A stretch of 37,117 bases of DNA, taken from the IMG/VR virus record IMGVR_UViG_3300019477_000150, one strand, 5' to 3'. Position numbers and translations under genes: made by a program. The notes under the pieces are model-generated. The model was not told the DNA's origin, made no database searches, and saw only the letters and a list, made by a program, of their open reading frames with translations. This DNA is from a virus. Position 1 is the stretch's first letter. Each line of letters begins with the position of its first letter. Positions 1,023 to 37,117 of this stretch are shown one piece after another.

Positions 1023-4000
1023 ATGGCTTGGATAAAAATACCTGAAAACAAAACTGAAATGCAGATAGGCGGCAACTGGGTAAAAATACCTAATGGCATG
1101 AAAGAGGTCGAGATACCTGATAATTTATTAGGCACGCAGTCAGCAAATAGCACACCAGCTTATGCGCCGCCTGCTCCTGATATGAGTAAAGCAGTAGATG
1201 CTACACCAAAAGAAAAGACGTGGTATGACAAAGTTGGCGAGTTTGCAGATAAAATCTCTCCAATAAATGTCATAAAAGGGGTAGGTAAAGAGTTAGGGGG
1301 AATGCTTGAGCATTCTCACTATGACGGGGCTACTGGCGAAGAATTAGAAGCAAAAAAAGCTACTGAAGCGCTATCAAGAGCAAAACATGCAAGCGATGAT
1401 AGAAACATTATCTCACAGCTTGCAGGTGACGAAAGTAAAGATCAAGCAGTAAAAGAAAGAACCGAAAATTTGCTCTACAACTGGGCTAAAAAGAATAATT
1501 ATGATGACGTAAGAGAGGCTAATGGCAAGTATTATTTACAAAAAGGAGATAATTTTATCCCAGTAGATGAGCCAGGTATCGGCGATAGCGTCTCAACCTA
1601 TTTAAACGAAATGGGCGTGCCTATGGGGGCAATAACTCTAGCGTCTAATCTTTTACCAAATAAAAAACTAAGTGCAGTGCAAAAGGCGGTAACTGCTGCT
1701 CTTGGTACAGCTGGAGCATCTGGCATTGGTGCTACAATGGACGTTTTTGCCGATAAAAGAATTTTAGGCGATGATAGCATAACCACTGATGATTATTTAA
1801 AACACGCTTTGCGTGGCGCAAGCGATGATGCTTTAGTCTCGGCTCCACTAGCGGCAATGGCATCGCCAGCGGTTAAAGAAGCTCTAAAAAAAGGGGCAAA
1901 AACAGCTTCTGATCTATCACTTGTAAAACCTCTTGCAAGATACGTGATAAATGACAATATTGGTGGGGCTGAAAAAGCAATAATGGATAAATTAGGCGGA
2001 GAGGCTAACGCAGCAGCAGCTCAAAATTTATCTAAAAATGCACTTGGCGATGACCTTTATAGGACTTTACTAAACGACGACCAAGCTTATGCTTTACCAA
2101 AAGTTGGCAATGAAAAGATACAAAAAGGCATTAACTACGTAAACGACAATATCTTAGCTCCAGCTCAAAAAATAACAAGAGATATGGTAAAGGGCGAGGG
2201 GACAAGAGAGCGAGAAATGGATCTATTTTTAACTGCTCTTGGTAACGATGCTAAGGGGGCGGATATAATTGCCGATGCAGTTGCTAGAGATCCAAAAAGC
2301 TTTTCAAAAATTTACAAAATGTCAAGCGACTTAAACGCAGACGCAAAAAATGCTTTTCTTAATATGATAGAAAAGAAAAAGACAGCAGATATTTTAAGCG
2401 GATACGAAAAACGTACAAAAGATAATTTTGGCGAGGTGATAAACGCCCTTGATGATGCCTTTGTGGGCAAAGAAGCAAGCGCAAATTTGCTCCAAGCTAA
2501 ACATGAACTTGGCACTCAGGCGTTAAGACTGCCAGCAGGGTATAAAGATAGCACATTGGAGCTATTAGGAAATATCAAAGGCTTTAAAGGGCTTAACGAA
2601 GTAAGAAACGTGCTAAGTGCTGATATGGCAAGGCTAACTGCTCCTGATGCTATCACAGCAGGCACTAAAAAAACACTTGGCAAGATGATAGAAGCAGTAG
2701 ATAATGCAATAGACAATGTCGCCGAGCAAGCCTTTAGTAACCCAGCTCTTAGCCAAAAAGCAAAAGATGTTTTAAAACAAGCAAGAAGCGAATACGCTCT
2801 TTTTAAAGAACTTCAAAACTCTAAAATTTACCATGATGTAATGGGTGAGCTAAAGAGTAGTGGCGATATAACAAACTCGCTCTTAAAAGCCCTAAATGCT
2901 GAAAATGGGCTTGATTTTAAAGCTCTTACAGCTAGATTAAGCAGTAGCGAGCAAGAAGCGCTAGAAACTAACTTAATCCGTGGGGTAATAGAAAAATTTA
3001 CCAAAGATGGGATAACTGACTTTTCTAAAGTAAGCAATACTTTAAAAAATGCTCCGTTTGAGAGCAAAAGAGCGGTAGAGATAATGGGTGAGCTAAACAA
3101 AAAAGCTCCTATACTAAATAACACGTCATCACTACTTGAAAAACTAACAGCGATTAATCCAAAGGCTAAAGAGCTACAACAAGGCATAGGGCATTCAGTA
3201 ACTGGAGCACTTATGACAATGAAGAGAAATTTAGCCATTGAAAGGTTAAAATCACTACTCCCAGTATTAGGCAATGACGCATCTTTAAAAAATCATATAA
3301 GAAATGCAATTAATAATGCAGGCGATCTAAAAAGCGTCATTAATAATCTTGAAAAGATAGAGATAAAAGATGCACCAGAGAACTCAACTAAACTACTAGA
3401 GGCTTTTAAAAACGAGGTAAAGGCGTTAAGAGAAGAGGCTCAAACTGGAGAGATAAAAGGGGATGGGTTTGTAGTAAAAAATGGTGGCAAACTTACTTTT
3501 ATGGATGAAGCTAAATTTGAGCTAAGTAAAGAGCTTCAAGGCAAGACTGATCTAGGTGAAAAAATATCAACTTCTTTAGCGTGGCTTCACTCAAAACATC
3601 CTGAAATGTTTGAGAACAAAAGAGCAGTTAAAGAACTAATTGATTATGTGCTTGATGAACCAAATACTATAAAGGCTGGAAAAAGCGAAAATAGTGTTTA
3701 TCTTGGTAAAAAAGATGGCACAAAAATAAAAGATATTGTGGTAAATAAAAGTGAAAATAAAATAATTCACGCAAATAGACGCAGGATGAGTACGGATGAA
3801 ATAAAGGCTGACGGTAAGGACGCCCACATCCCCTTACACACTGATACTATGCCAGCAGGGGCGACTGGTGCAAATGCACGTTCGTCAGCTGATGAAAGCA
3901 TTATACCAAAACAAACACAAGAATTAGATAAAACTTTAGAAAATAGAAATGTTAAGCCTTATAAGAATAAAGAGGATGCTCTTGTAAAAGAGGGTTATTT

Positions 4001-5159
4001 AAACCCAACATGGGAACCACAACTAAAGACTATTGCAAAAGAGCATGCCTTAGACGAAGCAAAACTAAAAGAGATTTTTTTAGACCAAACTATCAACACA
4101 TCAAAGGGGAGAAAGCCTAACTTCTTTTTAGACTTAGGAGATATTGTACCAACTTATGGTAAAAGCAAACGCTCCCCTGAATACACTAATAATTTAAGAG
4201 AAATAGACAATAAGTTACAACAAGCATACGAGGCTTTTGTGAAACCACTAAGTGCTAGTGAAAGCAAAAAAATAAAAACCCTTTATGCTAATCCGCACAT
4301 AGCAAGCGGCTTACTTGGTGGCACAGCAAATGGTGCTGATGAAAACGGCAACGTAAGCCCTGAAGAGTTTGCAAAAGGTTTTGTATATGCATTGTTTGGG
4401 TCAAAGATAACAGCCGAGGGAGTAAAAAAAGTAAGCCCTGAACTTTATAATAAGATACTAAGCATATCAAAAAAGCCAAGCGAAGAGATAAAAAAGATAG
4501 TAGATAATGCAGGAGTGGATAAACTTGCTAAACAAGAAAAAAGGGGTATTTATAATGTTACATATAATGGCAAATTTTCAACCCCAGTTTATAAGGATTT
4601 AGAGGATGTAGAGGGAGCGGTAAGATATGCGATAGGGAATAAAAACAAAGGAGCCAAGCATATCGAGATAAAGCATTTAGAAGACACAACAAAGGAAGGT
4701 TATGTTACGAAGCAAGAACTATTAAATATGGGCGAGAATATGCGTAAATTTATAAAAGAATATAAAGAACCATTTATAAATGATCGCAAAGCAAGGCTTT
4801 ATGAGTGGGAAGATAAAGATGGTGTAAGATTTAGGCTTGTCATAAATGATATAAAAGATAAAAACGGAGGAAGCGGGATACACTCCGCAATTACTTCAAC
4901 CTCCGCTAATGATGACATTATAACCTTTTATTCTGATAGAAACTTAAAAGAGCCGATGAAGTTTGAGAACCCAAAGCTTAAGCTACTTGATGCAATAGAC
5001 ACAAGTAGCGACAAGGTAGGCTTAGTTAAAAAAGTGCTGCTAAACAAAGACGTAAGTGACGGAGTAAAAGCTAAAGCAGTAAATAGGCTAACTAAAAATA
5101 AAATTAGTCAAGGTGCAAAAACTAGCTATATATCTACTAAAAACTCAGATAACAATTAG
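1023..5159 (+). CDS. Very large (1378 aa), mostly alpha-helical virion protein. Candidate internal-core/ejection or polyvalent protein; the C-terminal roughly 300 aa form a distinct domain (GAKHIEIKH...).
   Basis: Uninterrupted ORF 10 nt after the previous gene. Composition is Ala/Lys/Glu-rich and helical. It sits between scaffold and capsid genes, and no tape-measure gene occurs elsewhere in the window. Confidence 0.5.
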   Translation: MAWIKIPENKTEMQIGGNWVKIPNGMKEVEIPDNLLGTQSANSTPAYAPPAPDMSKAVDATPKEKTWYDKVGEFADKISPINVIKGVGKELGGMLEHSHYDGATGEELEAKKATEALSRAKHASDDRNIISQLAGDESKDQAVKERTENLLYNWAKKNNYDDVREANGKYYLQKGDNFIPVDEPGIGDSVSTYLNEMGVPMGAITLASNLLPNKKLSAVQKAVTAALGTAGASGIGATMDVFADKRILGDDSITTDDYLKHALRGASDDALVSAPLAAMASPAVKEALKKGAKTASDLSLVKPLARYVINDNIGGAEKAIMDKLGGEANAAAAQNLSKNALGDDLYRTLLNDDQAYALPKVGNEKIQKGINYVNDNILAPAQKITRDMVKGEGTREREMDLFLTALGNDAKGADIIADAVARDPKSFSKIYKMSSDLNADAKNAFLNMIEKKKTADILSGYEKRTKDNFGEVINALDDAFVGKEASANLLQAKHELGTQALRLPAGYKDSTLELLGNIKGFKGLNEVRNVLSADMARLTAPDAITAGTKKTLGKMIEAVDNAIDNVAEQAFSNPALSQKAKDVLKQARSEYALFKELQNSKIYHDVMGELKSSGDITNSLLKALNAENGLDFKALTARLSSSEQEALETNLIRGVIEKFTKDGITDFSKVSNTLKNAPFESKRAVEIMGELNKKAPILNNTSSLLEKLTAINPKAKELQQGIGHSVTGALMTMKRNLAIERLKSLLPVLGNDASLKNHIRNAINNAGDLKSVINNLEKIEIKDAPENSTKLLEAFKNEVKALREEAQTGEIKGDGFVVKNGGKLTFMDEAKFELSKELQGKTDLGEKISTSLAWLHSKHPEMFENKRAVKELIDYVLDEPNTIKAGKSENSVYLGKKDGTKIKDIVVNKSENKIIHANRRRMSTDEIKADGKDAHIPLHTDTMPAGATGANARSSADESIIPKQTQELDKTLENRNVKPYKNKEDALVKEGYLNPTWEPQLKTIAKEHALDEAKLKEIFLDQTINTSKGRKPNFFLDLGDIVPTYGKSKRSPEYTNNLREIDNKLQQAYEAFVKPLSASESKKIKTLYANPHIASGLLGGTANGADENGNVSPEEFAKGFVYALFGSKITAEGVKKVSPELYNKILSISKKPSEEIKKIVDNAGVDKLAKQEKRGIYNVTYNGKFSTPVYKDLEDVEGAVRYAIGNKNKGAKHIEIKHLEDTTKEGYVTKQELLNMGENMRKFIKEYKEPFINDRKARLYEWEDKDGVRFRLVINDIKDKNGGSGIHSAITSTSANDDIITFYSDRNLKEPMKFENPKLKLLDAIDTSSDKVGLVKKVLLNKDVSDGVKAKAVNRLTKNKISQGAKTSYISTKNSDNN

Positions 5160-5290: not shown

Positions 5291-6274
5291 ATGGCAATAA
5301 CTACAACTGGGTTTCAAGCCCCAGCTACAAAACGTGAAGGCTTAAAGCCCTCAGTCTACGAAAACATAATTTTAATAGGTGCTGACGAGACGCCTATACT
5401 AAAACTTATTGGCACTTCAAGTGTTAAAGGTATAGAGCACTCTTGGCTAACTGACAGCTTAGCTGCCCCAAAGAAAAACGCACAACTAGAGATTTCTGAC
5501 TTTGACGATCAGATCAAATCAAGCGTGCAAAAAACTTCAAATGCAGTGCAAATTTTTACTTCAAACGTTAGCGTTTCAAGAAGTATGCAAGCGGTGGCTA
5601 CTTACGGTGGTAAAGAGTTAGAGCGCGAGACAGCTAAAAGAGCGAAAGAGCATAAGCTAGATATGGAGTACGCTATCTTTGGTCTTGGTCGTGATGCTGA
5701 CGTTAAAAAGAGCGTGTTTAAAGCACCGACTGTTAGAACTGATGCAACAGCTGGCGAAATGGCAGGCTTATTTTATTTCTTGGCTAAAGGCTCAGCAGCA
5801 TTTGCAAGTGGTAAGCGTGGTAACGTTGTAGCGTTTGACAGCTCAGGTGATTGGAAAGGCACTCCAGCAGCACTAACTGAAACTGTGCTATCTCAACTAC
5901 TTCAAAATATTTGGGATGCAGGCACAACTCCAAAAGATGTGTTTATTGGTGCTGATCTAAAGCCAGCTATTAACAAAATAGCTACTAGACAATTTGGTAA
6001 CGAGAAAAACATCAACTCTAGCGTTGTTAGCCTAGACACTGACTTTGGCAGGGTAAATTTTAGACTTCACCGCTTCTTAAGCCCTAAATACGGATTAGGC
6101 GATTGTATCATTGCTGGCGACTTTGACTACATGAAAAATGGACTACTCGTGCCAACTGAACTAAAAGACGTGACTACTTCAAAAACAGCTATCCAAAAGA
6201 GATACTACACAGAAAGTTGTATCGAAGTAAGAAACGCAGACGCATTTGCAATAGGCGTTGGCTTAAAGGCTTAG
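5291..6274 (+). CDS. Major capsid protein candidate (HK97-fold MCP, about 327 aa, starting MAITTTGF...).
   Basis: Strong SD (AAGGAG) 8 nt before ATG 5291; the track's ATG 5270 has no RBS. It is preceded by a terminator and followed by a connector-like gene. The size and the separate scaffold gene fit an MCP lacking a delta domain. Confidence 0.5.
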   Translation: MAITTTGFQAPATKREGLKPSVYENIILIGADETPILKLIGTSSVKGIEHSWLTDSLAAPKKNAQLEISDFDDQIKSSVQKTSNAVQIFTSNVSVSRSMQAVATYGGKELERETAKRAKEHKLDMEYAIFGLGRDADVKKSVFKAPTVRTDATAGEMAGLFYFLAKGSAAFASGKRGNVVAFDSSGDWKGTPAALTETVLSQLLQNIWDAGTTPKDVFIGADLKPAINKIATRQFGNEKNINSSVVSLDTDFGRVNFRLHRFLSPKYGLGDCIIAGDFDYMKNGLLVPTELKDVTTSKTAIQKRYYTESCIEVRNADAFAIGVGLKA

Positions 6275-6276
6275 TA

Positions 6277-6654
6277 ATGCTTGCAACCGAAGCCAAAAAA
6301 CATTTGAGCTTTAAAACGACAGCAGGGGTTAAGCTCCCTGCTGATGATATGCTTGGCTCACTATTCTTAGAGGCTATGCTTTTTTGCTGCGATAAGTGCG
6401 TGCCAAATGTGCTTATTAGAAAACATAGTAGTGAAAAAGTATATCGAAACATTGAAGGAAACTGCTTTATTTGCGTGCCAGACGTGCCAAATTTCAGTAA
6501 CGACAAAGAGCACTTGCAAATAGACGAGAGCTTGAGTTATGCAGTGATTAACTACGTAGCTTTTTTAATAAACAAAGATACTTACTACCGCACGCTAGCA
6601 CTTGAGATAATAGCTGATTATAACGCAAATAATGGAGTGGAGTTTGGCATATGA
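6277..6654 (+). CDS. gp6-like head-tail connector / head completion protein, 125 aa.
   Basis: ATG 6277 lies 2 nt after the capsid stop, in frame with track ORF 6217..6654. The N-terminal ...ATEAKKHL... resembles the LEEaKaHLRiD signature of gp6/Phage_connect_1 proteins. Confidence 0.4.
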   Translation: MLATEAKKHLSFKTTAGVKLPADDMLGSLFLEAMLFCCDKCVPNVLIRKHSSEKVYRNIEGNCFICVPDVPNFSNDKEHLQIDESLSYAVINYVAFLINKDTYYRTLALEIIADYNANNGVEFGI

Positions 6655-24245: not shown

Positions 24246-24348
24246 TTTTTATCCTTTTTAACGTATTTATCATTTATGTTAAAAATTTCTCAATTTTTTT
24301 ATAATTTCTAAAAACTCGCCGACAGTCATACCAGGCTCATAGTAAAAT

Positions 24349-24696
24349 TCAACAAGCCTCATCAGAATATAAGAGCGCATCTCTTTCAGCCTCCTCTCGT
24401 AGTTTTTTAAGGGTTTGTTTGTAGGTAGTTGTATAGCTTAAGACTGCCTCATTACTCATTTCAGCTTCAACGCATAGCACATAGACAAGCGCTGCGTAGG
24501 CGAAAAAGTCTTTTTTGCAATGCTCGATTAAAAGATCAACTATTTCGCCGCTGTTTTCGCCAAGTGCATTTTTAAATGTGTAGCGGTGGAGGTTATATAC
24601 ATATCTGATGTCGGTTATTAAATAGTCAAACTTTTGGTTTAAATCTATATGTGCCACGTCGCTTTCGGCACGTGCTAGGTCGTAGCTCAAACTCAT
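24349..24696 (-). CDS. Hypothetical protein, first gene of the leftward early operon, 115 aa.
   Basis: ORF; first gene downstream (leftward) of the operator-bearing spacer. Confidence 0.4.
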   Translation of the reverse strand: MSLSYDLARAESDVAHIDLNQKFDYLITDIRYVYNLHRYTFKNALGENSGEIVDLLIEHCKKDFFAYAALVYVLCVEAEMSNEAVLSYTTTYKQTLKKLREEAERDALLYSDEAC

Positions 24697-24985
24697 TTTT
24701 AACTCCTTTTGATATTTAGATAGGCGATATTCTTTATCTCGCCGCCATTGCTGAAAAGCACCCTAAAAAATTTAATTAGCTTTCTCATCTCAAGCTCCTT
24801 TTTCTAATAGAAACCTTGCTCGCCACCGCCGACTGAAAGATGTTAAAAATTAATTTAGCTTGCAAAAGCAACTTTAAAGGAAAATTTTTTGTATGAAAAA
24901 TGTTAGAGGCTTTCGCCTACTCCAAGCAAGCAAGGCTTTTATTAGAAAAAGTGGTGTTTTTCGTTTTATTAATAACCCTGTGAAA

Positions 24986-25134
24986 AACTATCCTAAATCA
25001 GGGCTGGTACTGAGTGATAGCTTTTCGCCCTATCACTGACGCTTCAGATTGAAACGTGATTAAACCTGCAAACTCGCAGGAGGCTCACTCTGTCAGCTTT
25101 CGCTTGAAGCCTACAAAACGTTTTCCGTTTTCGA
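24986..25134. ncRNA. GC-rich structured element (several hairpins) in the early-left leader; candidate regulatory RNA or antitermination (nut/put-like) site.
   Basis: Hairpins AGTGATAG/CTATCACT (25023..25047) and CCTGC/GCAGG (25075..25090). Long-range pairing GCTTCA/TGAAGC. Ends in the palindrome AAAACGTTTT. Local GC is well above the AT-rich surroundings. Confidence 0.3.
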
Positions 25135-25141
25135 TGAGAGA

Positions 25142-25195
25142 AGTATAATATTATTGAACTTAAAAGAAAATAAAAAAGCTCAATATTATTGAACT
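25142..25195. promoter_or_regulatory. O_L-like operator pair: AGTATAATATTATTGAACT (25142..25160) and AGCTCAATATTATTGAACT (25177..25195).
   Basis: The same imperfect palindrome occurs three times in the cI/cro spacer. The two sites are 35 bp apart and overlap a TATAAT. Confidence 0.5.
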
Positions 25196-25451
25196 AAAAA
25201 AATATTTTAAAATTTGTTTTTAGAAATAGGCTGTGGTATAACTTGTTTGGATAAGTGAATGATACATTATGTGTCAAAAGAGATACAGTAATAAAAATGT
25301 TTTTATGGTATAATTTTAGAAAAATGGTGGCATTAGGCTAGCAATTAGCTGGGGTTATAGTAATTTAAACATCGACGTCTTTATCGTATTACTCTTTATT
25401 GTTGTGGGCGTAATAGCTTATTTAGTATTTTTTAAAATCAAGGAGGGCAAT

Positions 25452-25532
25452 ATGAGGAAAAACATAATTGGATTTGCTAAAAAAATGGCAGAGAAGATCG
25501 GTGGCGTTGTTTTGAATAAATTACTAGCCTAA
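25452..25532 (+). CDS. Tiny ORF (26 aa, MRKNIIGFAKKMAEKIGGVVLNKLLA) with a very strong SD, convergent on the nuclease gene.
   Basis: AAGGAGGG lies 6 nt before the ATG. Amphipathic, basic peptide. No homology can be asserted. Confidence 0.2.
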   Translation: MRKNIIGFAKKMAEKIGGVVLNKLLA

Positions 25533-25534
25533 GA

Positions 25535-25984
25535 TCAGCGTTTTCTCCACTCCCACGGCGGAGTAGGATTACTACTCTGCCAAAGCCCTCGCTTGTTCTC
25601 ACGAGCCAGCTTTTCTTGATCTACATACATTCTCGAGTATTTCATGTAAGCCCAAGCATAGCTATTTAGCACCATTTGAGCGTTTATGTCTTGCCCTTTA
25701 TGATGGATAATGCCTAGTGTGCGTTTATATCTATCTTTGCCCTTTGGCTCTACTTCTACAACTTGCCCTGCGATTAGGCTAGCCAAAAATTGTTTTGATC
25801 GTTGTCCGTAGTCTTGCTTTTTCTCTGGAGCGTCAATGCCATATAGCCTTACCTTTGTTTGCTCTTTGCCGCTTAGCACAGTGATAGTGTCGCCGTCAGA
25901 TATTTTTATGACTTTGGCTGAAAAAGCAAAGAGAGATAATGGAGAAACAAAAAGAAAACCGATCAAAAAAATATTTTTTATCAA
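25535..25984 (-). CDS. Secreted staphylococcal-nuclease-like thermonuclease (SNase fold) with Sec signal peptide.
   Basis: ...DGDT...RLYGIDAPE...DRYKRTL...GLW... align with the SNase catalytic blocks. N-terminal MIKNIFLIGFLFVSPLSLFAFSA is a signal peptide. TTG start overlapping the upstream stop (TTGA). Confidence 0.75.
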   Translation of the reverse strand: MIKNIFLIGFLFVSPLSLFAFSAKVIKISDGDTITVLSGKEQTKVRLYGIDAPEKKQDYGQRSKQFLASLIAGQVVEVEPKGKDRYKRTLGIIHHKGQDINAQMVLNSYAWAYMKYSRMYVDQEKLARENKRGLWQSSNPTPPWEWRKR

Positions 25985-26484
25985 TCGTCTTTCTTCTTGA
26001 AAAGTTCTTTTTGGTTTTTTTCTATCTCGCAGACTAAGTTTATTGAGTTTTGGGTTAAATCCATTACTTTTCTGTGCTCACCGTAGTAGGTAGTCTTTTT
26101 TTTGCAAAGTTCCTTTATGTACTCAAGGATGGAAATATCCGCTTTGTATATTTGTTCCAATAATGTTTTATATTCCCCAAGCATTTGTTCTTCTGATATA
26201 GTCTTTTCATAATAATCACTAATAGCTAGAGCGAATATATTAACTCTTATATAGTTTAGTCGGATAATAGCTAAATAATTAAGGGCTTCAATATTTGATG
26301 TAAGCTCTGCAATATTACCATCATAATCTTTTTTTAAAATTTTCGAGAAACAATCTTTTAAGACTAATAAACACTCCTTTTTCTCGTTGTCGGTCCTTTG
26401 TAATATATCTTTTGTTAGCAAATATAAAAAATTAAATAGAGTAAAAAATATAGCTATTGCAGAAAGCCACGCGGGGGTACTCAT
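25981..26484 (-). CDS. Single-pass membrane protein (N-terminal TM, helical soluble domain), 167 aa.
   Basis: Hydrophobic N-terminus AWLSAIAIFFTLFNFLYLL. A 6-nt gap separates it from the upstream gene, and it overlaps the downstream nuclease gene. Confidence 0.5.
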   Translation of the reverse strand: MSTPAWLSAIAIFFTLFNFLYLLTKDILQRTDNEKKECLLVLKDCFSKILKKDYDGNIAELTSNIEALNYLAIIRLNYIRVNIFALAISDYYEKTISEEQMLGEYKTLLEQIYKADISILEYIKELCKKKTTYYGEHRKVMDLTQNSINLVCEIEKNQKELFKKKDD

Positions 26485-26490
26485 AATTTA

Positions 26491-26826
26491 CTACTTTGTT
26501 ATTGGCTTAGAAAAAGCCCTAAATTTTTCTTCTAGCTTTGGATTATCCTTGCTGAATAATTTTATTCTCCTAAAAAACTCAGTTTCCCCTAGTTTTTCAT
26601 ATAAAGGTGAAAATGCTTCAGACAAAAAAGAGGGGTTAAAAGAGGTTTTTATCCCGCTGCCGTCTATATCTATAATGTCATATTTATCCAACAAACCCTT
26701 TAATACATCTTCTCTAAATTCTTCTCCAGACTTATCGCCAAGTCTTTTGTACCTAGGTCCTGGAGCATCCGTAAAATTCTCAGCAAAATTATATATAATC
26801 TTATTTTCCATCATTCTGCTCCTCAC
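26491..26826 (-). CDS. Small STAS-like (DUF4325-like) protein, 111 aa.
   Basis: ...IIDIDGSGIKTSFNPSFLSEAF...L...G resembles the DUF4325 'LDFeGV..isSSFldE.fg' block. It overlaps the ATPase gene by 26 nt. Confidence 0.45.
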   Translation of the reverse strand: MRSRMMENKIIYNFAENFTDAPGPRYKRLGDKSGEEFREDVLKGLLDKYDIIDIDGSGIKTSFNPSFLSEAFSPLYEKLGETEFFRRIKLFSKDNPKLEEKFRAFSKPITK

Positions 26827-27883
26827 TTAAATCTCTTATGGACCATCTAATGAATGTCCCTTGTATTTTGGATTTAAGTTTTATGATTTTATCATTTTTT
26901 GTTAAATATAAAAAGCTATCAGTTGCAACCTCTAGTGAAGCACTCTTACTCATATCTTGCTGAATAATATCTATAAAATTTTTAAAAGCTATCATCCCAA
27001 ACCCCCTGTTTTTGTTTTTGTCTTTATATTTTGATAGATTAGACCTACATAAAGTTCGCAAGGTATTCCCTTTCCCAATACGTTTTAATAATCTATGCAT
27101 GGCTATTGAAAACTTATTTTTTTCACTCTCTAATGATTTAAATATCCCCATGCCTGTATCATAGAAAATAAATTCAATTTCTTTGTCATCCTTATTGTAT
27201 GCACCCATAAACCATACTTTTTTATCCCCATCAAAATCAACAAAAGCGTGCTCGCTCGAGTTTGCCATTGCCTCAAAAATTGCATCAAATAACTCATCTT
27301 TATTTTTTTCTAAAATTTTATTCTCGCCAGCAAAAAAATCTATAATTGGATAGTGAAATTCGTTGTCTATTTGCACGCCATCACGATAATCTATTTTTAG
27401 GTATTTTTGCCCTTCTTTGATTGCTTCTTTTCTTGGGTTTATACACAATGCATCCCAATACCCTATGGCAGCCAATCTTTGATCTATTGATTTTATTGGC
27501 GAAATTTTACTACTTCTTATTAACTTTTGCCCACTAAAAATATTATTAATCCCAACAGTCATTAGAAGGATAGAAGCATTGTCGATTTCTCTCATCTTTC
27601 TATGATCCATAGACATTATGCAACTATGTCTTTTGTTTTGGTAATTTTTGAGTTTATCAAGTGTAGAATTTATGAGTTTTATATCTTCAGGGAAAACTAT
27701 TTTTTCAGGCATCTCAATTTTATATAGCACCTTATTTTTATGACACAAATCATGGGGAGGGTTAAAATTGTGCTCGTGAGTGCTTTTTTTATTTTTACGC
27801 TTAATTTTTTTTCGCACTTTTCGTCTATAATTTGGCACATCCGTAACCGAAGAAACTTTACTATTCTCTATAATAATTTTCAT
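26801..27883 (-). CDS. GHKL / histidine-kinase-like ATPase with a basic, Lys-rich N-terminal region, 360 aa.
   Basis: Bergerat-fold motifs in the correct order: N-box FEAMANSSEHA, G1 DTGMGI, G2 NRGFGMIAF. The start lies 31 nt after the repressor stop. Confidence 0.5.
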   Translation of the reverse strand: MKIIIENSKVSSVTDVPNYRRKVRKKIKRKNKKSTHEHNFNPPHDLCHKNKVLYKIEMPEKIVFPEDIKLINSTLDKLKNYQNKRHSCIMSMDHRKMREIDNASILLMTVGINNIFSGQKLIRSSKISPIKSIDQRLAAIGYWDALCINPRKEAIKEGQKYLKIDYRDGVQIDNEFHYPIIDFFAGENKILEKNKDELFDAIFEAMANSSEHAFVDFDGDKKVWFMGAYNKDDKEIEFIFYDTGMGIFKSLESEKNKFSIAMHRLLKRIGKGNTLRTLCRSNLSKYKDKNKNRGFGMIAFKNFIDIIQQDMSKSASLEVATDSFLYLTKNDKIIKLKSKIQGTFIRWSIRDLSEEQNDGK

Positions 27884-27914
27884 AAGATTTTCTCGCTTTT
27901 TTAGAAAAACACCC

Positions 27915-28619
27915 TTACTTTATCCCATAATCCTCAAACGTCAGCCCTTTATACACTTCGCAATGGACTTTACCGCAGACTTTGCCAAGTATCTCACACT
28001 CGTAGCCCTCTTTATGTGGGTATATGTCGCTATATTTTGGGTTTAGGCTGATTAGTTTTATTTTATTCTGTGGCAAAAACTCAACCCTTTTGATATAGAC
28101 TACGTCGTCCATTCTGACAATATAAACGCCAGCTATACGCACGAAGTTATCCCTACCTGCTACCATATCAGCAATAGCCCAGTCACCCTCGTAAAAATCA
28201 GGCTCCATGCTATCGCCTACCACTTCGAAAATGCGTAAATTTTTAGTATCAAGCCCTTTTAGAAAAGCTTTATCAACGGCAATCTTTCGCTCGTCTTTTT
28301 GAAGCATAGCGAGATCATAAACGCCCTCGCTACCTGCGCCTATACGCATTTCGGATTTTGGGACATATACCATATTTTCTTGAGGTTTAGAAAAAAGGCT
28401 TTGTTTTACAACCTCATTTACGTCTAATTTTAACACTTTAGCTACGCCTATCATATTTTTTAAGTCAGGCACAATAGGCTCTTTCATAAACCATTTTTTA
28501 ATAGCCGATTCTGTGATAGGGTAGCCTGCATTTGTCATATCTATTGCTAAATCGGCGTATCTAATCTTTTTTTCTTTCATTTTCTCTTTTAAAAAATCAG
28601 TGTTTAGCAGAAAATCCAT
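27915..28619 (-). CDS. cI/LexA-type phage repressor (N-terminal HTH, C-terminal S24 peptidase).
   Basis: GDSM (Ser) and YIKRV (Lys) catalytic dyad. Divergent from a Cro-like gene, with operator palindromes in the spacer. Confidence 0.85.
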   Translation of the reverse strand: MDFLLNTDFLKEKMKEKKIRYADLAIDMTNAGYPITESAIKKWFMKEPIVPDLKNMIGVAKVLKLDVNEVVKQSLFSKPQENMVYVPKSEMRIGAGSEGVYDLAMLQKDERKIAVDKAFLKGLDTKNLRIFEVVGDSMEPDFYEGDWAIADMVAGRDNFVRIAGVYIVRMDDVVYIKRVEFLPQNKIKLISLNPKYSDIYPHKEGYECEILGKVCGKVHCEVYKGLTFEDYGIK

Positions 28620-28639
28620 GTTTAATCCTTTCTTAAAAA

Positions 28640-28730
28640 AGTTCAGTTTTATTATACCATTGTTTTTAAAAATAATAGTTCAATACTATTGAGCTTTTTT
28701 AACTTTTTTTAAGTTCTTTTAAATTATACT
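28640..28730. promoter_or_regulatory. O_R-like operator cluster (3 sites) with divergent P_RM/P_R-type promoters.
   Basis: AGTTCAGTTTTATTATACC (28640), AGTTCAATACTATTGAGCT (28677) and AGTTCTTTTAAATTATACT (28712), spaced about 35-37 bp apart. Confidence 0.5.
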
Positions 28731-36839: not shown

Positions 36840-37117
36840 ATGCCATATTTTAACCCTAACAAGGTAGATTTTAACTATAACACCAACACAATAGACGCAG
36901 TAGGCGCAACTGGTAGAGCTTTATGGGATATTTATCAAGATAGCGTAAGAAACAACTTCACAAAACAAAGGCTAGCAGAGGAGAATAGATCAAATTTAGC
37001 AAACGAGCAAAATAATATAGATAGGCTAAACGAAAACATACGTCACAATATGTCAACCGAAACTGAAACAGCGAATAACAATGCCATAAATCAAGGGCTT
37101 AAGCGTGACGAGCTTGG
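36840..37117 (+). CDS. 5' part of the junction-spanning virion protein (continues at 1..1013).
   Basis: SD AAGGAG 8 nt before ATG 36840. Open to the window end and in frame with 60..1013. Confidence 0.6.
   Translation, partial: MPYFNPNKVDFNYNTNTIDAVGATGRALWDIYQDSVRNNFTKQRLAEENRSNLANEQNNIDRLNENIRHNMSTETETANNNAINQGLKRDEL
36991..37117. repeat. 127-nt terminal redundancy, identical to 1..127 (circular or circularly permuted sequence).
   Basis: Exact identity of the first and last 127 nt. Confidence 0.9.

Follow-up and report, generated by a model that had tools for sequence, protein, structure and literature searches.

Does a gene for a seemingly exported nuclease whose start overlaps the stop codon of a membrane-protein gene belong to the same system as its neighbour, or have two unrelated modules come to lie side by side? 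The question is raised by the immunity region of a Campylobacter concisus temperate phage, represented by a stretch of 37,117 nucleotides (nt) (IMG/VR virus record IMGVR_UViG_3300019477_000150; the window, by which we mean this whole stretch). Here, five minus-strand genes encode in order a cI-like repressor, a 360-amino-acid (aa) protein, a DUF4325 protein, a membrane protein and an SNase-family nuclease, with successive spacings of 31 nt, a 14-nt overlap, 6 nt and a 4-nt overlap (Table 1). An initial annotation had read the nuclease as co-translated with the membrane protein, suggesting either a lysogenic-conversion gene that restricts incoming DNA or the effector arm of the pair of genes upstream, and had remarked on the oddity of an exported nuclease inside a putative abortive infection (Abi) module. 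Our analysis favours two independent modules. The nuclease is probably an exported lysogenic-conversion gene, and the membrane protein the effector of a separate cassette, the trio, which it forms with the 360-aa and DUF4325 proteins.

The nuclease and the trio occur independently

Scanning species-representative genomes yielded nine prophage loci from C. concisus (L002-L009, L023), all of which carry the nuclease in the same slot, with the layout cI, variable DNA (1.0-2.3 kb), nuclease, variable DNA, phrog_35190, DUF1351 and PDDEXK; the membrane protein is missing from all nine, as are the DUF4325 and 360-aa proteins. The layout recurs in 29 further contigs from an IMG/VR scan, spanning at least three cI immunity types, where a trio of the window's type is absent (0 of 29) and a divergent trio is present in two. 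Altogether, the nuclease stands without the trio in about 36 of the 38 related loci. In nearly all of them the last cassette gene abuts or overlaps the nuclease start equally tightly; the two divergent trios are set 140-200 nt away from it. Nuclease homologues, of which there are more than 3,600, are also found within C. concisus chromosomes, as carriage on an integrated mobile element would have it, and the closest named ones are annotated 'thermonuclease family protein' from this species.

The slot upstream of the nuclease holds different genes in different relatives. Its contents include PDC-M24A/B (E values of 9e-23 and 2e-67), a PDC-S25 SIR2 (E 4e-142), an ImmA/IrrE peptidase with a DUF4411 PIN protein, an ATPase with a PD-Lambda-5_B-like Dam methylase (E 7.5e-105) and a 315-aa membrane protein. 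Because recognised defence candidates occupy this slot, we interpret the interval from cI to the nuclease (25196-28676 of the window, minus strand, with its counterparts in L002-L009 and L079-L107) as a variable defence hotspot of a C. concisus prophage family. The call is based on the recognised cassettes, and about 20 of the IMG/VR contigs carry cassettes without a named type.

The trio likewise occurs without the nuclease. A search based on the membrane protein recovered the full trio, directly after a cI-type repressor, in 10 of 10 informative loci, four of which (the C. showae-type loci) have no nuclease. A Helicobacter prophage (BK070146), Marinobacter phage AS1 (whose genes overlap by 4 nt) and IMG/VR contigs share this architecture: a protein of 276-384 aa is followed by a DUF4325-like one of 105-139 aa and by one of 134-167 aa that has a hydrophobic helix at its N-terminus. 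Most of these trios, too, come without a nuclease. Judged from its published annotation table alone, Francisella phage KIRK has the same gene order.

Finally, the two modules are set apart by composition and by a breakpoint in DNA homology. The trio has a G+C content of 30-34%, the nuclease 41% and the genome 38.5%. Over the stretch from 45 to 30 nt ahead of the D30 codon of the nuclease, DNA identity to relatives climbs from background level to ≥90%, and the cassette recombination breakpoint lies at about 25927-25942, within codons 15-20 of the nuclease gene itself. Independent occurrence, the G+C contrast and this homology breakpoint together argue that the nuclease and the membrane protein are not partners. 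The pairing first proposed for the nuclease, be it with the membrane protein or with the upstream pair, is thus not supported, and the apparent oddity of an exported nuclease in an Abi module vanishes with it, as the nuclease is a conserved gene flanking a variable defence slot. It is intact, selectively maintained and fixed in the immunity region of this prophage family, whatever defence cassette precedes it.

The overlap that had suggested a pair is itself real: the nuclease start codon, TTG at 25984-25982, and the stop codon of the single-pass membrane protein, TGA at 25983-25981, run together in the four nucleotides TTGA. This overlap reflects operon compaction, possibly with translational coupling at the junction between cassette and nuclease, and is a by-product of cassette insertion beside a conserved gene.

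Table 1. Features of the immunity region, in window coordinates
Feature	Position	Strand	Description
O_L-like operator repeats	25142-25195	.	Downstream of nuclease; 25-mer copy at 25171-25195; end of immunity region
SNase-family (thermonuclease) gene	25535-25984	-	149 aa, TTG start; conserved last gene of the cI operon
Signal-peptide-like nuclease N-terminus	25925-25984	-	Residues 1-20; from hydropathy, motif analysis and homologue N-termini
Membrane protein	25981-26484	-	167 aa, ATG start; third gene of the trio, putative effector
DUF4325 STAS-like protein, VapS-like	26491-26814	-	107 aa, ATG at 26814, alternative GTG at 26826; Pfam DUF4325 E 1.2e-9
360-aa VapK-like protein	26801-27883	-	Basic predicted-disordered N-terminus, alpha/beta domain, C-terminal GHKL (SpoIIAB/RsbW-type) kinase domain
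cI-like repressor, S24 autopeptidase domain	27915-28619	-	Pfam Peptidase_S24 E 1.7e-16; PHROG transcriptional repressor E 4.8e-30; first operon gene
O_R-like operator repeats	28640-28701	.	cI/cro intergenic; 25-mer copy at 28677-28701

An intact nuclease with a signal-peptide-like N-terminus

The nuclease matches the Pfam SNase family (PF00565) with an E value of 1.4e-21 and 77.3 bits, against a cut-off of 21 bits, over profile positions 1-106 of 107. SNase is the sole family in its Pfam scan at E ≤0.01, which returned no Endonuclease I or DNA/RNA non-specific endonuclease match. The protein also matches PHROG endonuclease families and aligns with the sequences of S. aureus nuclease structures (E ~4e-8); in PADLOC it matches the generic SNc domain alone (E 1.5e-12) and no defence model otherwise. 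The top NCBIfam match is EcnA, and literature searches for that name, and for thermonucleases with prophages and the periplasm, gave nothing useful.

All the catalytic blocks quoted in the initial annotation are present, at residues 30-33 (DGDT), 46-54 (RLYGIDAPE), 84-91 (DRYKRTLG) and 133-135 (GLW). By alignment, D21, R35, D40, E43 and R87 of S. aureus nuclease correspond to D32, R46, D51, E54 and R88, and T41, a backbone carbonyl ligand, is replaced by A52. The Ca2+-ligand and catalytic positions are at least 90% conserved in 120 homologues. The mature domain, which is small and basic (~127-129 aa; isoelectric point 9.8), is under purifying selection, with a ratio of non-synonymous to synonymous substitution rates (dN/dS) of 0.06-0.19 against 10 relatives. 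From its homology to S. aureus nuclease, we predict a Ca2+-dependent, non-specific nuclease.

A few prophages carry a frameshifted or truncated nuclease gene (L023, L033 and L107). In L023 it is split into 58-aa and 85-aa pieces (6004-6391), and L033 retains fragments only (3800-4003 and 5830-5916). Such broken copies mean that the gene is occasionally lost.

We assessed the N-terminus by hydropathy and motif heuristics combined with homologue comparison. Residues 1-20, MIKNIFLIGFLFVSPLSLFA, contain one lysine (K3), a hydrophobic core at residues 5-19 (Kyte-Doolittle 2.2-2.4), a helix breaker at S14-P15 and an L-x-A motif (L18-F19-A20) ahead of the folded domain; aligned with mature S. aureus nuclease, that domain starts near residue 21. 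The 120 closest homologues (overall identity 82-94%) share almost no sequence over their first ~15 residues, and conservation exceeds 90% from residue 17 on. In all 120, a basic start leads into a run of 10-16 hydrophobic residues, then x-[LV]-x-A and finally [FLHY][SPN][AG]K. Signal-like or lipoprotein-like N-termini also occur in distant homologues, from Rodentibacter, Orbaceae, Crenothrix, oral Flavobacteriaceae and Moraxella phage Mcat8. The signal peptide first proposed for this protein therefore holds up as a pattern kept among its relatives; on these grounds the nuclease is very likely exported, with cleavage probable after Ala20 or, in the window allele, Ser22.

Because the recombination breakpoint lies inside the signal-peptide coding region, each cassette would bring its own signal-peptide N-terminus. 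The n- and h-regions are swapped with each cassette, and the c-region and mature enzyme stay constant, which amounts to a natural signal-peptide swapping experiment.

Some smaller reading frames surround or overlie these genes. A small plus-strand open reading frame (ORF; 25404-25532) converges on the nuclease gene, its stop codon 2 nt from the nuclease stop. Its start is most likely the ATG at 25452, which has AGGAGG before it and gives a 26-aa product, MRKNIIGFAKKMAEKIGGVVLNKLLA; the ORF is 97% conserved in L001 and L009 and partly conserved in L033, and a terminator-like hairpin for it lies inside the nuclease gene (25591-25606). The product could be a small amphipathic peptide or toxin. 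Two antisense ORFs, also on the plus strand (26387-26830, 147 aa; 25836-26000, 54 aa), overlie the DUF4325, membrane-protein and nuclease genes, and we treat both as by-products of AT-rich sequence.

The operon lies between two putative operators

The 25-mer AGTTCAATA[A/C]TATTGAGCTTTTTTA occurs in exactly two copies in the window, with none expected by chance. The copy downstream of the nuclease is inverted relative to that between cI and cro, and is followed by a TATACT element, similar to a -10 box, that points left. Half-palindromes cluster at these two sites only. We read the repeats as predicted right and left operators, O_R and O_L. Their bracketing would place all five genes inside the immunity region, in the position of lambda rexA-rexB, and the five are probably transcribed with cI in lysogens from a P_RM-like promoter. 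As the nuclease gene lies between O_R and O_L, is co-directional with cI and is tightly packed with its neighbours, it is most likely expressed in lysogens.

A G+C-rich stretch (24885-25135, minus strand) that immediately follows the putative P_L promoter folds with a minimum free energy of -71.4 kcal/mol (z -3.8; 0 of 200 shuffles as good). It has no Rfam match and is possibly a leader or antitermination-type RNA. Spurious ORFs from what is apparently the same stretch recur in L003-L006, which suggests conservation; L059 has an N-antiterminator-family gene at this position.

A kinase-STAS pair with a membrane protein

The trio occupies 25981-27883 on the minus strand, and related trios are found in L049-L059, L063, L064 and L065-L078. 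The family of the 360-aa protein carries invariant Bergerat-fold motifs, namely an N-box (EAMANSxEHA), a G1 box (YDxGxGI) and a G2 box (RGxG), and 10 of 13 homologues match HATPase_c_2 (best E 6.5e-7); the window protein itself gives nothing significant in PADLOC, NCBIfam or Pfam. An AlphaFold2 (AF2) model (mean predicted local distance difference test (pLDDT) 75.7; predicted TM-score 0.77) shows an alpha/beta domain at residues 50-170, and the top PDB matches of the model in Foldseek are SpoIIAB (probability 1.00, target TM-score 0.61-0.69). Residues 1-50 form a very basic, predicted-disordered tail, RRKVRKKIKRKNKK, whose character is conserved across the family and which could be a nucleic-acid-binding tail.

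In the second protein, Ser62, Phe63 and Glu66 are invariant in an alignment of nine diverse trio members. The DUF4325 domain spans residues 33-96 of the scanned 111-aa translation from GTG, or ~29-92 of the 107-aa form, and the Pfam scan found no helix-turn-helix (HTH) or winged helix-turn-helix (wHTH) match in the window protein. Profile searches of PDB sequences with the 360-aa and DUF4325 families returned nothing meaningful, and no PADLOC v2 model matches the trio.

The membrane protein has a single hydrophobic segment (residues ~4-28), which would form an N-terminal transmembrane helix ahead of a helical soluble part; its AF2 model is all-helical and of low confidence (pLDDT 54.7). Its 21 homologues are all from Campylobacter. 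Searches of Pfam, NCBIfam, PHROGs and PADLOC gave no family match beyond noise: weak PADLOC 'protease' matches (E ~3e-3) were disregarded as chance, as was a weak, below-threshold DsrE match (E 5e-4). Neither a PIN domain nor another family was found in the third gene here, or in those of the Helicobacter prophage, Marinobacter phage AS1 and the IMG/VR trios inspected.

These features recall a system described by Chambers et al. (EMBO J 2026; PMC13373217) alongside CapK/CapS. In their three-gene anti-phage system VapKSC, the STAS-GHKL kinase VapK phosphorylates Ser48 of a small STAS antitoxin, VapS, whereupon the PIN toxin VapC is released; activation of VapK by single-stranded DNA (ssDNA) is a prediction made there from CapK and an AlphaFold 3 (AF3) model, with no direct test, and the text of that paper does not mention a transmembrane variant. 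We extracted the VapS and VapK sequences from its supplementary AF3 model. VapS matches Pfam DUF4325 (E 2.7e-17). In hhalign, the GHKL region of VapK aligns with the 360-aa family (E 9.4e-5, probability 59%), the alpha/beta domain (50-170) is not aligned to VapK, and VapS Ser48 is placed one residue from the invariant Ser62 (probability 10%).

We therefore suggest that the trio is a VapKS-like pair with a membrane effector; it falls outside VapKSC in the strict sense, its third gene not encoding VapC. By analogy, the invariant serine of the STAS protein would be the target of the kinase, and its phosphorylation would free the membrane protein to act as a toxic effector. We also considered the kinase and STAS proteins as a CapK/CapS-type regulator of the nuclease, and rejected this because the STAS protein lacks a DNA-binding domain and the pair travels without the nuclease.

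What the nuclease may do for its lysogen

In the interpretation we prefer, with nuclease and trio as independent modules, a Sec-type signal peptide would direct the nuclease to the periplasm or the medium, where it would cut DNA outside the cytoplasm of lysogens. Likely consequences are the destruction of incoming transforming DNA, the degradation of extracellular DNA (eDNA), or both; each is plausible by analogy, and they are not exclusive of each other. The precedent invoked in the initial annotation is well founded. In C. jejuni, the prophage DNases Dns (on CJIE1), CJE0566 (on CJIE2) and CJE1441 (on CJIE4) have signal peptides, prevent natural competence and remove biofilm eDNA (PMC4372405; PMC12378983), and the nucleases IdeA and SxnA of V. 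cholerae integrative and conjugative elements (ICEs) behave likewise (PMC7693049). A target process exists in the host, as C. concisus is naturally transformable once the DNA has been methylated in vitro (PMC6155014). Similar gene arrangements are seen in Moraxella phage Mcat8, in which an S24 repressor is directly followed by an SNase with a signal peptide, and in Curvibacter phage TJ1, where a 154-aa hypothetical protein stands between a Cro/CI gene and the SNase downstream.

Several points weigh against this interpretation. Export of the nuclease and its expression in lysogens are deduced from heuristics and gene position, and its hydrophobic segment could be an uncleaved anchor. A sigma-70 promoter scan gave 16 sites against 19 expected, no better than shuffled sequence, and a terminator after the nuclease was not found. 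Transformation of C. concisus is documented only after in-vitro methylation of the DNA (PMC6155014). For the cassette, homology to VapK and VapS is weak by sequence, as the hhalign probabilities given above indicate, and relatives of the membrane protein were detected in Campylobacter and Helicobacter only. Finally, the TTGA junction is kept wherever the trio abuts the nuclease, so some functional coupling of expression is possible.

A more ambitious version would cover both modules at once. The trio would be a membrane-acting VapKSC variant in the rexAB position, present in phages of Campylobacter, Helicobacter, Marinobacter and probably Francisella, and the nuclease the first SNase-fold member of the transformation-blocking DNases of mobile genetic elements (MGEs), its signal peptide rebuilt at each cassette swap. 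The GHKL kinase could then sense ssDNA or DNA damage, and the freed single-pass protein would collapse the membrane and abort superinfection. We put this forward tentatively and think it less likely than not.

Among the alternatives, an exported nuclease may serve mainly the ecology of the lysogen, through eDNA biofilm remodelling and dispersal, escape from neutrophil extracellular traps (NETs) or scavenging of nucleotides in its oral or gut niche, and have no meaningful effect on transformation. In Rodentibacter, Orbaceae and oral Flavobacteriaceae, related SNases with signal peptides have ordinary chromosomal surroundings; published work on Nuc, an SNase-family enzyme of non-typeable H. influenzae, deals with eDNA biofilms (PMC5944969); the C. 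jejuni prophage enzyme CJE1441 removes biofilm eDNA (PMC4372405); and C. concisus is itself a biofilm-forming oral bacterium (PMC10820981). These functions are, however, compatible with a transformation block, since the C. jejuni enzymes do both, and by themselves they leave the fixation of the nuclease in the immunity region across at least three immunity types unexplained. We think this reading less likely than not, and regard it as a serious alternative.

Much less probable is that the nuclease is a superinfection-exclusion factor that degrades incoming or periplasm-stalled phage DNA. It does adjoin a defence hotspot in an immunity region presumably expressed during lysogeny, and its probable extracytoplasmic location would suit the role. 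However, injected phage DNA is normally shielded while crossing the periplasm, a non-specific nuclease offers no discrimination of self from non-self, and the protein matches no PADLOC defence model beyond the generic SNc domain.

We give slightly less credence still to the idea that the N-terminal segment is an uncleaved anchor or no targeting signal at all, with the nuclease then serving as a DNA-uptake entry nuclease at the inner membrane or, during lytic growth, attacking host or phage DNA in the cytoplasm. In its favour, the hydrophobic stretch runs to ~17 residues, which is long, and the n-region holds a single lysine; membrane-associated uptake nucleases have precedents in the competence entry nuclease NucM of M. 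catarrhalis (PMC6384898) and in pneumococcal EndA, which is membrane-bound and required for transformation (reviewed in PMC12378983). Against this stand the conservation of Ala at -1 and of a small or aliphatic residue at -3 across very diverse N-termini, and a signal-like N-terminus in every homologue inspected. A non-specific nuclease in the cytoplasm without a visible immunity protein would moreover be toxic, and the position of the gene, upstream of P_L, keeps it out of the early lytic operon.

Least credible of all is a fourth component or effector arm of the kinase-STAS-membrane system, co-translated with a membrane protein that delivers or activates it: strand, operon and a TTGA overlap repeated in diverged relatives with the trio (L053, L054, L056-L059, L066) speak for it, but each module occurs without the other, unrelated cassettes abut the nuclease just as closely, the two divergent trios stand apart from it, composition and breakpoint part the modules, and the effector of VapKSC is its third gene.

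By itself the nuclease is fairly ordinary, given that secreted DNases borne by prophages are known and that this one already has a family annotation in C. concisus. Separating the apparent pair into two modules nevertheless removes a misleading hypothesis of an 'exported Abi nuclease', and yields a cleanly delimited defence hotspot, with the nuclease gene as an anchor for mining new systems, in a common prophage family of human oral and gut Campylobacter. If the nuclease limits DNA uptake, it would be a third nuclease fold by which mobile elements suppress transformation, and might help to explain why C. concisus is hard to transform.

The phage genome

Direct terminal repeats of 127 bp (1-127 and 36991-37117) indicate a complete genome of ~36,990 bp that is circularly closed or terminally redundant. 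The window encodes an SU10-type capsid and portal, a terminase, an integrase, RecT, a PDDEXK exonuclease and the cI repressor, and this gene set, with the terminal repeat, identifies it as a complete temperate phage genome of ~37 kb; the integrase and cI bear out the initial assignment to a prophage element. A megablast search of INPHARED phages with positions 24300-28700 gave no match, and the window yielded no Rfam match and no tRNA. In the structural region, a 1,378-aa ORF (1023-5159, plus strand) has no Pfam match at E ≤0.001.

Relation to known systems

The nuclease shares with the staphylococcal nuclease family, including Nuc of non-typeable H. influenzae, its fold family, the conserved Ca2+-ligand and catalytic residues, an N-terminal secretion signal (signal-like here) and a small basic mature domain. 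It differs in the replacement of T41 by Ala and in its place in a phage immunity region, where other members are chromosomal housekeeping or virulence genes. With the transformation-blocking DNases of MGEs it has in common carriage on an integrated element in Campylobacter, a signal peptide (predicted here), predicted non-specific action outside the cytoplasm and the same plausible pay-offs. Those enzymes, compared here through partly secondary descriptions, are Dns/Endonuclease-I homologues or DNA/RNA non-specific endonucleases, whereas the window protein is an SNase. The likeness is thus one of functional analogy and not of family membership.

As with lambda rexA-rexB, the accessory genes are co-directional with cI, lie directly downstream of it between the predicted O_R and O_L, include a membrane protein and are presumably expressed in lysogens. 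Unlike rexA-rexB, which comprises two genes, the present arrangement has three genes plus the nuclease, and neither RexA nor RexB homology was detected in Pfam, PHROGs, NCBIfam or PADLOC.

The first two trio proteins resemble SpoIIAB-SpoIIAA and RsbW-RsbV, in that SpoIIAB is the best structural match of the C-terminal domain and a STAS-like partner is encoded next to it; they differ from these pairs in having no sigma factor, in the extra N-terminal domain and in their setting in a phage defence slot. Relative to CapK/CapS, the basic tail of the 360-aa protein takes the place of the HTH of CapK, and the STAS protein has no counterpart of the C-terminal wHTH DNA-binding domain of CapS. With VapKSC the cassette shares a three-gene operon, a first gene with a GHKL anti-sigma-kinase-like domain and a second for a STAS protein of the DUF4325 family, ~110 aa in size, whose conserved serine falls next to the position of VapS Ser48. 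It departs from VapKSC in its third gene, a single-pass helical protein in place of the VapC PIN nuclease, in the basic, predicted-disordered N-terminus of its kinase, and in being phage-borne and placed directly after cI. If our reading is right, the trio extends the kinase-STAS logic of VapKSC and CapKS to a membrane effector and to phage genomes.

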